Shown here: piece by piece, positions 49,184 to 60,174 of the stretch
Layout of the letters: every line of letters begins with the position of its first letter
Position numbering within the stretch: the stretch's first letter is position 1
Assembly: GCA_040954595.2 (NCBI GenBank)
Contig: CM082598.2
Coordinates: forward strand, 7,889,097-7,953,096
Direction: 5' to 3'
DNA from: Balanoglossus misakiensis
Taxonomy: Eukaryota > Animalia > Hemichordata
DNA length: 64,000 nt
Notes under the pieces: generated by a model
What the model was told of the DNA's origin: nothing
Databases searched by the model: none
The model's input: only the letters and a program-made list of their open reading frames with translations
Translations under genes and position numbers: made by a program

Positions 49184-50542
49184 ATGGCATCTATGAGAGA
49201 CATTCTAGAAAGTCTACAAATGGGGAATCTCAGTGACAACTTTGAGAGTGAAAAGGTAACACCAGAATTAGTGTGTAAACTTTCTGTGCCAGAACTGGAG
49301 GAGCTTGGTCTTCAAAACAGGGCAGACATGATGGCATTACGTATTGCGTGCACCACAAGTGGAGGGGAAACTCCAACAAAAGCCCATGGATTATATGGTG
49401 GTGCTCCAGAATTTGTCATTCCCAAATGCATCTTAGAACATTTTTTTGATGAAGGATTCACAGTTACTGAAGTGGCATCTATGTTATCTGTTTCGGAGCG
49501 TACTATTTACCGCAGAATGATGCATTATGGGCTGAGTAAGATGAATTTCTCTGATATCTCTGATGGTGACCTGGATGATAATGTACAGCAACTGACAGTG
49601 GAATTCCCTTATTGTGGTGAAAATATGATCAAGTATATGTTGCAAGAAAAGGGAATTAAAGTCCAACGGATGAGGCTCCGTGATAGTATCCACAGGGTAG
49701 ATGCTGAGGGTGTTAATTCCAGAAGAAAAGGTCGTTTACAAAGACGTGTCTACAATGTGAAGGGACCAAATCACTTATGGCATATTGATACCAACCATAA
49801 GTTAATTAGATGGCATTTTGTGATATTTGGGGGCATTGATGGCTTCAGTAGACTACCTGTCATCCTATCCTGCAGCAACAACAATAAGGCACCCACATTG
49901 CTGGAATACTTCAAGTCCGGTGTTGAGAATTTTGGTCTTCCCAGTCGTGTAAGGTCTGACATGGGTCGTGAAAATATACTGATAGCTGAGTATATGATTG
50001 AGAGACGGGGACCCAACAGGGGAAGCATGATTACAGGCAAAAGTGTGCATAATCAGAGGATTGAACGATTATGGAAAGATGTGTATGAAGGTGTTCTGAG
50101 CCTTTACTACCAACTATTTTACTTCATGGAAGAAAGAGGTGTACTTGACCCACTGAATGTACTGCACATTGCAGCTCTTCACTATGTGTTCATGCCTAAA
50201 ATAAATGAAAAGTTAGAAATCTGGAGGAAAGCTTGGGCTCGACATCGTATGCGTACAACAAAGACATCACCTCTGCGTTTGTGGATATCTGGACAGATGA
50301 ATGATCCAGTTGGTATTGATGACTCTGACATTGGTTTGTATGGAGTAGAGGGTGTCATCAATGATGATTCAGAGGAGACAGACTCGCGACCAATCATCGA
50401 GCCACCATCATTTCAAATGGGTCAACAGTGTATGGATGCACTATCTCAGCACATATTACCAAACTGGACATCAGACAACTATGGCATTGACATTTATAAT
50501 ATAGCAGTTCAAATCATACAGGACAATGCTGATCAAAATTAG
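49184..50542 (+). CDS. IS3EU DDE transposase (452 aa): N-terminal SAM-like domain, HTH, integrase core
   Basis: Intact single ORF. SAM-like [60 protein letters not shown]; catalytic [20 protein letters not shown]. Confidence 0.93.
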
Positions 50543-51337
50543 TCAATAATTTTCAAAGTGCTTAAGTCGCACATATTTGACGGATTAAAAGAAATGACAA
50601 TACTTTCAATTTTACTGATCATGTGGATTTTTGGTTTCTCATTTGTATGTACATGTATAATGACAATCTGTAAAAAATATAGGGGTCACCACGCTTGTTA
50701 TCGAAATACAAGGCCGCGAATTTAGTCCCTAATGCTACGGAAAAAGATGAATACATGCAGTTTTTCAGTTTGTTCTGTGCATACATCATTAAGAGCATTT
50801 GTACACAGAGCAGTAAAAGTTTTAAATAATATACCTTCACAGGCGAAACTGTCCCAAATACTTTTGTTTCACTCATTTCACTCTTTCCGATACTATTGTT
50901 TTTTCTTATTACAGTCTCTAATGAATATGCTATCATTTCTTCACATTTGGGAATAAAACAGCTTTAAGTACACATTTTTAATAGAGAACAATGACAACTT
51001 TATTGACCATTAAATCATGACCGATAAAAGAAACTGAACATCTCAGACAGTAAACATTTACCAACAGCTAACAGCTACTTCTAGAAGCTCTACAGATTCT
51101 ACTATATTGTATTATATTCTTTCTACTTTAGACTGATATTGATTTTCATCTGTCAGCCAAATCAGTATTACCGGTAAGATGTATGTTTAATAGATTAAAA
51201 TGAAATAACATGATACATACCATGGTCACACTGGTAAAAATGTGAAACGTTTCATATGGGGTCACACATACACCATTAAGACGTTTCAGAAACATCTCAG
51301 ATCAAATACTGGCGTAAATTATGCGTAAACGGTTTAA

Positions 51338-58000: not shown

Positions 58001-60174
58001 TCCAGGATGTTGAGAGAAGGGGGGAATGTCCCCTCTTAGTCCAAAATTATTGGGGGATTTGGTCAAAGTAGGGGGGAATCATGATTTGCATAATTTATGT
58101 TAATTAGGTAAATTTCAAGGAATAACAATTTTGAACGTTATCTTACTAACTGCCTTCATTCCAGCAACTTATGAAGTGCTGGGCTTGCCAGCGTAGGTAG
58201 TAGGTACTGTGCAATCTCGTGTGACCTGAGCTACGTAGTGATAGCGAGACAGAATTACAACATTTTACATGTTAACATGTGACATCTAAACAGTTACAGA
58301 TTTTTACTACTTTAAATTAGTAGATTTTGCAGAGGAAGACACCAGCTTGCATGACTTTCAGGGCATGTAATTTAAAAAAGGCCGGAGAGCAGAAAATAAC
58401 TCCTGAAATTAATTACACAAGTGGTAGGAGAGTGACTAACTGCTCCCCTGGCAAGGAGAGTGAAATGAATAAAATAAATGCAACTGGAAAAACAAGTGTC
58501 TTTCTTTAAAACTATACCTGGGAAAAATTTTCTTGTTTGATTTTAAAAGTTTCAGTTTTTTTAGCTGTCAAAATATTATATTGTGAAACTATTAATAGTG
58601 AAATAAATTGAAGTGGTATATTCCTTCAGATTTCTGCCTACACTTCCCCATCTGTGGCTAGGCACACTACTCAAATAAATAGTCACTGTACATATTGAAT
58701 GACTTTCCTTCCAAAGTAAGAAAACAGGTCTTGGAAAACTGATACATTCTTGATAATCGCCATGGCATGAATGCAGTTCTTTTAATTTGCATAAAATTGT
58801 TACATTCTGCCAACCCAATTTCAAATGTCTCCATAACAACAAGATCACTTGAGTGTGTGCTCTAAACTTAGACAGTGTCCAGACAGAGCTCTTTGGCTGT
58901 TCCAACAATTGCACACTATAGCCCTTGGAGCTAAATTACACGTAATTGAATGTGAAAGTCAAGACATTTACAACATAGTATTTGGGGGTGGGAAGTTAAA
59001 ATGTATAGGCCAGCACGCAGTGTTATCGGCCGTTTTCCCAGTGTTTAGACTGACAGTGCATGCTATGGAGGCATGGACGCGCATGTACTGGCCGTCTGGG
59101 CTGCTCACGAAGGGGCGATTGTCGCCCCCTGAACTTGTTACAAGGGGCGCTTCAAGTGGGGGGAATCGCGCAATCGCGCGTCCCGGAGAAAACACCAGAA
59201 TCATACCCCTCAGCAATTTCGATCCCCGTTAGAAACAGAACAAGATGATTAAAACTTACATGATCCTGTTCAGCATTTTCAGTCAGATCAACAACCATAT
59301 TGTTCGGAATTTCTTGCGGTGTATCTCGATGTTCAATAGGTCCGAGAGGAAGCTCTGGGTCTTCATCCGACTCCGATTGAAGAACTGGCAAACACCAGTC
59401 GATATGACTGCGTAATTTGTCAATCGTGAACTCTGTGTTGCAACCTCGGCACTTTTCTTTCAGACTCGTCCCATGGCTGGTTTGTTCTGTTTCTGTGACG
59501 TTCAGATTTTTTTTAATAGGGCGCAAGTATAATTTGGCTTGAGAGCCGACATGGCGCTTTAGCTCCTCGACGCTCCAAGAACATGTTACCGTTTGCAAAT
59601 TTCGGCAGTTGCCAGTGCAATGCATGATTTCGAAACCTCCGCATTCACTTAATTGTGGATATTCCGCCTTGATTTTGTTGGCAACATCTTCCTCATCATC
59701 GTGGCAGAAAAAAATCATCTTACGTTCCCCAAGTCCCGCCTTGTTAAGAACTAGCTTTTCAGCAACTGTTGGAATTCTCTGTTGAAGGCGATCAGCCACA
59801 CACAAGACACGGACTGTCCATGTCCGGGCCTTTTTGGCGGTTTTCTTACCTCGACCAACAGTACCAGACGGGGCACCAGCCCGCCCACGCCCACCATTGC
59901 CTCTGGCGGGGATAAATAACATGTCTCTTTCAGAGCGTACGGTCTCAGAGAGTCTTCCATAGTTGCTAGAAGATGCAGATGCTTGATCCATGTCTTCACG
60001 GGCGACAGCACGTGAACACTTCTTTCGCAGATCATGCCGGTGTCCCATGGTCTCTACCCCCAATCTTATGAGTTCACGATCAGTGAGCGATTCTACAGTT
60101 TCCGGGGAAATGCGTTCTTGCAAAAAATTTGGTATCAGAGTTGACAATGACATAGAACGCAAAATTTCCTCCAT
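52002..60174 (-). CDS. Transposon-encoded HECT E3 ubiquitin ligase-like protein, 659 aa, 6 exons (SAM, ubiquitin-like, UBZ finger, SIM, HECT)
   Basis: Exons 60174-59260, 57386-57036, 55802-55673, 54319-54174, 53826-53649, 52261-52002; all GT-AG with consistent phases, total 1980 nt, no internal stop. HECT motifs VDFYGEQAKDYGGPRKEFF, GIIIALSM, LKDGLSTLG, ILQFVTG, FLPTANTCINLLSLP (catalytic Cys), and C-terminal FFGNV* with the -4 Phe. Confidence 0.9.
52280..52491. mobile_element. Truncated Kolobok-type MITE (right half) in the last intron of the HECT gene
   Basis: Ends gagagagactattgtccct|TTAA; homologous to 51338-51683. Confidence 0.65.
52528..52744. mobile_element. Small palindromic MITE (CAC termini, EnSpm/CACTA-like) in a HECT intron
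   Basis: CACAGCTAAA...TTTAGTTGTG with many cagacctg/caggtctg subrepeats. Confidence 0.5.
52860..56880. repeat. Two diverged copies of a ~270-bp repeat in HECT introns (52860-53130, 56610-56880)
   Basis: Shared gctcaaatttg...gcaagctgtc...atgcaaattac...catgtga...atgtaaacaatggtga. Confidence 0.6.

Follow-up and report, generated by a model that had tools for sequence, protein, structure and literature searches.

IS3EU and GingerRoot elements form a known superfamily of DNA transposons, which the available portions of their descriptions (Kojima and Bao 2023, PMC10045372; Cerbin et al. 2019, PMC6839031) give TA..TA termini, a 6-bp target-site duplication (TSD) and a shared core, an integrase-type DDE domain with WHxDTNHKL and HNQRIERLW motifs in which HHCC is absent. 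Here we analyse a 64,000-nucleotide stretch of the hemichordate Balanoglossus misakiensis (GCA_040954595.2, contig CM082598.2, positions 7,889,097 to 7,953,096; hereafter the window), which carries such an element with two genes, a transposase and a predicted HECT-type E3 ligase. Both proteins begin with a sterile alpha motif (SAM) domain, as judged from sequence profiles and structural models, and the two SAM families conserve complementary binding faces. From this conservation we consider it somewhat likely (a probability of roughly 0.55) that the ligase SAM docks one-to-one onto the transposase SAM as a directional heterodimer.

The window element is an intact IS3EU/GingerRoot transposon under the definition given in the available text of PMC10045372: it has TA..TA ends, a 6-bp TSD which is perfect (47786-47791 = 61560-61565), and an integrase-type DDE core without HHCC, along with a helix-turn-helix-like N-terminal region. 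In a comparison made by eye only, this core is nearest to those of IS3EU-1_SK, IS3EU-3_CGi and IS3EU-6_CGi (Repbase cores in the PMC10045372 supplement). Its terminal inverted repeats are ~1.2 kb each and made of 21/22-bp tandem units, whereas those of GingerRoot, in the descriptions available, span 100-150 bp. The transposase, reading from the left arm, and the predicted ligase, from the right arm, are convergent, each pointing inward from the inner edge of its repeat. Long open reading frames (ORFs) at 47712-49137 and 60312-61672, in the terminal repeats, were rejected as artefacts of the tandem arrays. The element and its genes are laid out as follows.

47792..61559, no strand: complete IS3EU/GingerRoot-type DNA transposon, 13,768 bp, termini TA..TA, outer 60 bp of both ends 59/60 identical
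47786..47791, + strand: left TSD, 6 bp, same 6-mer on both flanks
61560..61565, + strand: right TSD, 6 bp, same 6-mer on both flanks
47792..49071, + strand: left terminal inverted repeat, chiefly a 21/22-bp tandem array of 57.6 copies, inner end approximate
60412..61559, - strand: right terminal inverted repeat, 21/22-bp tandem array of 51.8 copies, inner end approximate
49184..50542, + strand: transposase gene, intronless, 452 residues, with SAM domain, helix-turn-helix region and rva_4 integrase-type core with D202, D259 and E294
49193..49354, + strand: transposase SAM domain (residues 4-57), mid-loop face conserved, end-helix Gly absent
59260..60174, - strand: ligase exon 1 from ATG 60174 (predicted), with SAM domain, linker, ubiquitin-like domain and C2HC zinc finger
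60013..60174, - strand: ligase SAM domain (residues 1-54), end-helix face conserved, invariant Gly44
59509-59829, - strand: ligase ubiquitin-like domain, within exon 1
59392-59466, - strand: ligase C2HC zinc finger, within exon 1, below the Pfam cut-off
57036..57386, - strand: ligase exon 2 (predicted)
55673..55802, - strand: ligase exon 3 (predicted)
54174..54319, - strand: ligase exon 4 (predicted)
53649..53826, - strand: ligase exon 5 (predicted)
52002..52261, - strand: ligase exon 6 (predicted), with HECT C-lobe and stop, catalytic-position Cys622 at 52116-52118

Two SAM domains and their binding faces

The transposase matches PF24764 (E 4.7e-77), with additional Pfam helix-turn-helix matches in its N-terminal region, and its catalytic residues are kept across the aligned sequences (D202 104/104, D259 104/104, E294 103/104). 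An AlphaFold model of the whole protein has a predicted template modelling score (pTM) of 0.84, and its core superposes on integrase folds with Z 15-16. Against Pfam SAM_1 the N-terminus alone scores 17.1 bits, which is below the cut-off (E 0.007 when run alone), and 14 of 16 transposase family members match SAM_1 at E<=0.1. A profile of the transposase SAM family finds the tankyrase-1 SAM as its best PDB match (E 8.5e-6), with CNK2, BICC1, SHANK and ANKS6 SAMs following and about 18 more SAM-containing chains in all. The modelled domain has five helices (4-10, 14-22, 27-30, 35-40 and 46-56; predicted local distance difference test, pLDDT, 86-95), and residues 1-60 superpose best on the Shank3 SAM (Z 9.2, root-mean-square deviation (rmsd) 1.8, 59 aligned), with tankyrase-1 close by (Z 9.1, rmsd 2.3). 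The proportion of nonsynonymous differences (pN) in the transposase SAM was lower than that of synonymous ones (pS) in four of six locus pairs (0.031/0.157, 0.174/0.479, 0.173/0.424 and 0.086/0.263), a pattern not seen in the two closest pairs.

Ligase exons were predicted from AG/GT borders, an open spliced frame and tblastn matches to relatives, and the six exons give a single open frame of 659 residues. Exon 1 exceeds the Pfam cut-offs for both SAM_1 (25.3 bits) and SAM_2 (26.4 bits), the family profile scores 41.1 bits against BICC1, 40.7 against ANKS6 and 37.4 against tankyrase-1 among solved SAMs, and the model superposes on the tankyrase-1 SAM in a five-helix fold (Z 8.8, rmsd 2.2, 59 aligned). 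A below-cut-off Pfam Phage_integrase match on this N-terminus, overlapping the SAM helices, was rejected. The modelled ubiquitin-like domain matches the TBK1 ubiquitin-like domain (Z 7.9) among many similar matches. Exon 6 matches PF00632 (HECT) above the cut-off at 34.8 bits, with Cys622 lying 37 residues before the C-terminus, and by its C-lobe and this catalytic-position Cys the second gene is assigned to the HECT-type E3 ligases, with activity predicted. Exons 2-5, searched alone, gave no Pfam match. Longer homologues of the ligase were sought and none turned up, which is weak evidence.

Both N-termini compared in the preliminary description are present (transposase ORF 49184-50542, + strand; ligase from ATG 60174, - strand), they align without gaps at 19/53 identities, and its proposal that each folds as a SAM is borne out by Pfam and profile matches and by superposition of AlphaFold models on solved SAMs. 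As the Z values (9.2 and 9.1 for the transposase, 8.8 for the ligase) are middling for helical domains, the identification relies on the many SAM entries among the structure matches together with the sequence profiles, and not on Z alone.

To compare faces, we mapped the tankyrase interface residues (PMC4980433) in ungapped register onto a set made non-redundant at 70% (68 SAMs from transposases and 63 from ligases); the end-helix and mid-loop residues map gaplessly onto both element SAMs. The Gly at the end-helix (G921 equivalent) occurs in 63/63 ligases and 2/68 transposases, and the hydrophobic plug (Y920 position) in 62/63 ligases and 4/67 transposases. Conversely, the mid-loop acid (D/E at the D902 position) is found in 67/68 transposases versus 27/63 ligases, and I/L/V at the V903 position in 64/68 versus 21/63. 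Mean entropy is accordingly lower in the mid-loop of the transposases (0.84 versus 1.87 bits) and in the end-helix of the ligases (1.41 versus 2.16 bits). The tankyrase K928-E906 pair seems charge-swapped between the families, with K/R in 43/68 transposases and D/E in 36/63 ligases. In Eph SAM heterodimers, according to the available text of PMC5993539, the Gly that opens helix 5 tolerates no replacement. A mid-loop pocket and an end-helix Gly and plug on one and the same domain, the combination that marks tankyrase-type polymers, is not found in the transposase SAM.

Origin and joint distribution of the SAM domains

The two window SAMs are 36% identical over their ungapped alignment, with a local alignment score of 82 that none of 20,000 shuffles reached (maximum 55). 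This identity is ordinary for two families with a cross-family mean of 30% and a 95th percentile of 39%, and the cognate pair is no closer than random pairs across the families (rank 18/65 and 40/102). The families are reciprocally monophyletic (support 0.98) and third codon positions of the window's two SAMs are 34% identical, on which grounds recent or recurrent homogenisation was rejected.

The SAM stands at or near the initiator Met in 54/68 transposases and 37/63 ligases, and an L-R-x-x-C end is common to both families (64/68 transposases; 38/63 ligases allowing similar residues) and absent from the three host SAMs aligned with the ligase profile. This shared start and shared end favour one origin for both SAMs, and with the transposase profile 46/65 ligase SAMs outscore the best solved host SAM in the PDB. 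As to the paralogy put forward in the preliminary description, a common origin is moderately probable from these sequence features, although BICC1 (41.1 bits) and ANKS6 (40.7 bits) score as well under the ligase profile as the transposase SAMs do (median 37.8 bits).

Two relatives indicate that a copying route through the terminal inverted repeat exists. At the L020 locus the inverted repeat extends as far as the first codon of the ligase SAM on one side and stops ~40 bp short of the transposase SAM on the other; the L035 locus carries, on its opposite arm, an inverted duplicate of the transposase 5' end. A SAM of the BICC1/ANKS6/tankyrase type would have been captured once; as the terminal inverted repeat grew inward, this SAM would have been copied into the second gene, and each copy would then have retained one binding face. 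The L020 repeat (1900-2026 and 7058-7152), reaching the first ligase SAM codon, gives an in-frame upstream ATG, and both arms carry a GCCGCCATTTTG motif, which we take to resemble a YY1/initiator site. L035:1100-3806 is a fold-back derivative with two transposase 5' halves facing each other, its right arm holding an inverted start of SAM, helix-turn-helix and core in place of the ligase.

Searches found 2,741 transposase homologues, among them named ones from a coral and bivalves, and 2,334 matches to the ligase N-terminal profile. Of the 120 top-ranked transposase homologues, a ranking that favours full-length matches, 109 have a SAM (>=40 bits), and most of the remaining 11 begin within or beyond it; the transposase alignment took 103 of the 120. 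Among 155 ligase-family sequences including that of the window, 70 have a SAM, 80 have too little upstream sequence for a verdict, and five have at least 60 upstream residues yet no full SAM; the ligase alignment used 65 sequences. Few of the 61 loci surveyed allowed scoring of the two 5' ends. Both SAMs are present in four elements (the window, L020, L022 and L039); L050 and the decayed L045/L046, a single element, have neither. The joint presence or absence expected in the preliminary description therefore holds in 6/6 scorable elements, yet it rests on a single gain, because all SAM-bearing transposases form one clade. In a midpoint-rooted tree of 35 catalytic cores, which omitted loci with <130 core columns (among them L020, L045/L046, L058 and L060), 16/16 SAM-labelled rows fall in one clade (100/99) and the four SAM-less rows outside it. 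SAM-less transposases have instead ~90-100 unrelated N-terminal residues ending in a GRP motif. SAM-bearing and SAM-less ligases were not resolved from each other in a 115-row tree built on the ubiquitin-like domain of the ligase (support 0.68).

L050:7645-18017 is a complete SAM-less relative, with a transposase and a spliced gene joining ubiquitin-like and HECT domains; the transposase has ~90 other N-terminal residues and the ligase seemingly begins with a short helix-like exon. These N-termini are possibly an older docking pair that SAMs later replaced. Thirteen IS3EU transposase loci (L049-L061), several of which look spliced, lie in contigs filed as prokaryotic metagenome-assembled genomes, which are probably contaminating host (animal) DNA. 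Viral contigs yielded 68 pattern matches, none of them a relative. In the ESM Atlas a single lead fell under 0.9 (0.80); rva_4 occurred in 24% and SAM_2 in 13% of its 80 members.

Proposed docking of the ligase and rival explanations

The preliminary description had proposed a docking pair in which the ligase is recruited to the transposase or both SAMs co-polymerise on the element ends. Its first half is indirectly supported by the conserved complementary faces, the end-helix in the ligase and the mid-loop in the transposase. A directional heterodimer is favoured over a co-polymer because the ligase keeps the end-helix and the transposase keeps only the mid-loop face, and co-polymerisation is disfavoured because the transposase SAM is without the end-helix Gly and hydrophobic plug needed for head-to-tail extension. 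The ligase would present its end-helix face to the mid-loop pocket on the transposase SAM, and the pair would be closed on the transposase side, where there is no usable end-helix.

Several observations weigh against this reading. The position-permutation p of 0.0012 for the split of conserved faces is optimistic, the residue sets having been taken after the asymmetry was seen and neither positions nor sequences being independent. The window ligase itself deviates from the end-helix consensus (H45, H47, D48 and K51 versus D, I/V, R and E), because of which the charge swap fails in the window pair (K opposite K). The ligase mid-loop is only partly degenerate, with E20 in 53/63 and a conserved acidic position 32, so that ligase self-association may occur. 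Under the ligase profile only 33/102 transposase SAMs outscore the best host SAM. Joint SAM presence is one event and by itself no evidence of co-evolution. The L010 locus has complete ends and a SAM transposase and no ligase match; this 3-kb element (L010:1261-4290) has TATGGAA-type ends the same as its relatives and a long branch in the core tree, and either arose by deletion or represents a lineage without the ligase. Finally, separate host partners would yield the same split of faces.

That last alternative, in which each SAM binds a host SAM protein and not the other SAM, seems unlikely to us. For targeting, the transposase mid-loop would accept the end-helix of a SAM protein of the host, either a scaffold or a chromatin protein, and the ligase end-helix would hold the mid-loop of a host SAM protein that is its ubiquitination target, such as a factor of restriction or silencing. 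The closest solved relatives are indeed SAMs of host networks (BICC1, ANKS6, tankyrase), SAM heterodimers are widespread according to the available text of PMC4105859, and both the L010 arrangement and the departure of the window's own faces from a consensus fit speak for it. It leaves unexplained, however, the exact complementarity of the two faces and the similar SAM at residue 1 of both genes in one clade. Rather less probable is a polymer, in which ligase SAMs would chain head-to-tail with the transposase SAM capping or seeding them, or both would co-polymerise along the tandem units of the terminal repeats. Polymer formers such as tankyrase are among the nearest solved SAMs (PMC4980433), the ligase SAMs combine an acidic mid-loop region (net -3.5) with a basic, intact end-helix (+1.5), and each element end holds >50 tandem 21/22-bp units. 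Yet an alternating or transposase-only end-helix-to-mid-loop polymer is unlikely given the missing Gly and plug. In the ligase mid-loop, positions 20-22 are conserved and 25 and 26 vary widely (~3 bits), and the inspected arms of L020 showed no long tandem arrays.

We regard it as very doubtful that the transposase SAM is instead a structural or DNA-contacting part (packing via R46, M50, R53 and C56), with the ligase SAM independent and their likeness a trace of duplication or of two captures. Residues invariant in the transposases do lie outside the canonical faces (R at family position 50 in 68/68, M/V at 47 in 68/68), host SAMs score like typical transposase SAMs under the ligase profile, and the pTM of the transposase model is compatible with a fixed SAM position. 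Against this, the conserved exposed mid-loop matches the tankyrase contacts E897, D902, V903, M907 and E911, which suggests retained SAM-SAM binding.

Under the directional heterodimer, the docked predicted ligase would bring ubiquitin-ligase activity to the transposase. By analogy, and as a weaker step, it might ubiquitinate the transposase itself, lowering its level or dismantling the complex after insertion, much as ClpX remodels the Mu transpososome; alternatively, and equally as a weaker step, it might tag host proteins at or beside the transposase complex. We tentatively suggest, as a possibility short of even odds, that an animal transposon lineage evolved an orthogonal docking system: a polymer-type SAM was duplicated via the terminal inverted repeat, its faces were split into a socket on the transposase and a plug on the HECT ligase, and the element ubiquitinates its own transpososome or adjacent host proteins as a step in transposition. 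In eukaryotic DNA transposons, accessory genes tend to be regarded as passengers or anti-silencing weapons. If the proposal is true, this element harnesses the ubiquitin system to regulate its transposition or bring it to completion, and would offer a clean natural example of a homopolymer interface split into a heterodimer after duplication. The pair consists of two 6-kDa domains, cheap to probe, in a large family.

The wider window and comparison with known systems

Further repeats lie inside the element and resemble miniature inverted-repeat transposable elements (MITEs).

51334..51648, no strand: MITE-like repeat between the transposase and ligase genes, with further copies near 33830-33979 and 34769-34908
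52276..52495, no strand: second copy of the MITE-like repeat, inside predicted ligase intron 5

Elsewhere in the window, two overlapping long frames of 957 and 229 residues (28364-31887, - strand), with no Pfam match at E 0.01, look like another large transposon protein, and a Harbinger-type transposase fragment (DDE_Tnp_4, E 2.4e-25) lies at 7844-8485 (- strand). A long near-perfect inverted repeat (21212-25837, 97-99%) has internal 364-bp units and contains a 187-residue frame at 23540-24103 with no Pfam match. A 122-bp tandem array occupies 12481-14405, and a 383-bp inverted repeat (99%) 45603-46682.

No HECT, ubiquitin or sterile-alpha wording was found in the available portions of the IS3EU literature (PMC10045372, PMC6839031, PMC12730594 and bioRxiv 2021.09.26.461848). 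Nor did we find a publication on SAM or HECT in IS3EU or, among the titles listed, on SAM-bearing transposases or HECT-bearing transposons, in a search outside which lay Repbase reports, subscription journals and bioRxiv supplements, where the second gene may be annotated. The superfamily itself is known; what appears new, from sequence comparison, is the split of SAM faces between transposase and ligase.

The products of RAG1 and RAG2 act as a complex. RAG-like ProtoRAG transposons likewise hold two convergent genes between terminal inverted repeats, as the available text of PMC7204232 describes, but their transposase is unrelated, and the window element has a HECT ligase as the partner, with a SAM pair as its predicted link to the transposase. 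Fungal IS3EU elements with TET/JBP and alpha-kinase genes resemble it in placing an enzyme gene opposite the transposase; their cargo enzymes are other than a HECT ligase, and the available portions of PMC12730594 describe no docking module. At the level of the domains, the SAMs of tankyrase, BICC1 and ANKS6 (PDB 5KNI/5JTI, 4RQM and 4NL9) share the same five-helix fold and are the best matches in sequence and structure. Tankyrase bears both faces on one domain and polymerises, whereas the element SAM families each conserve chiefly one face, as do the partners in the closed heterodimers EphA2-SHIP2 and EphA5-SAMD5 in the available text of PMC5993539.

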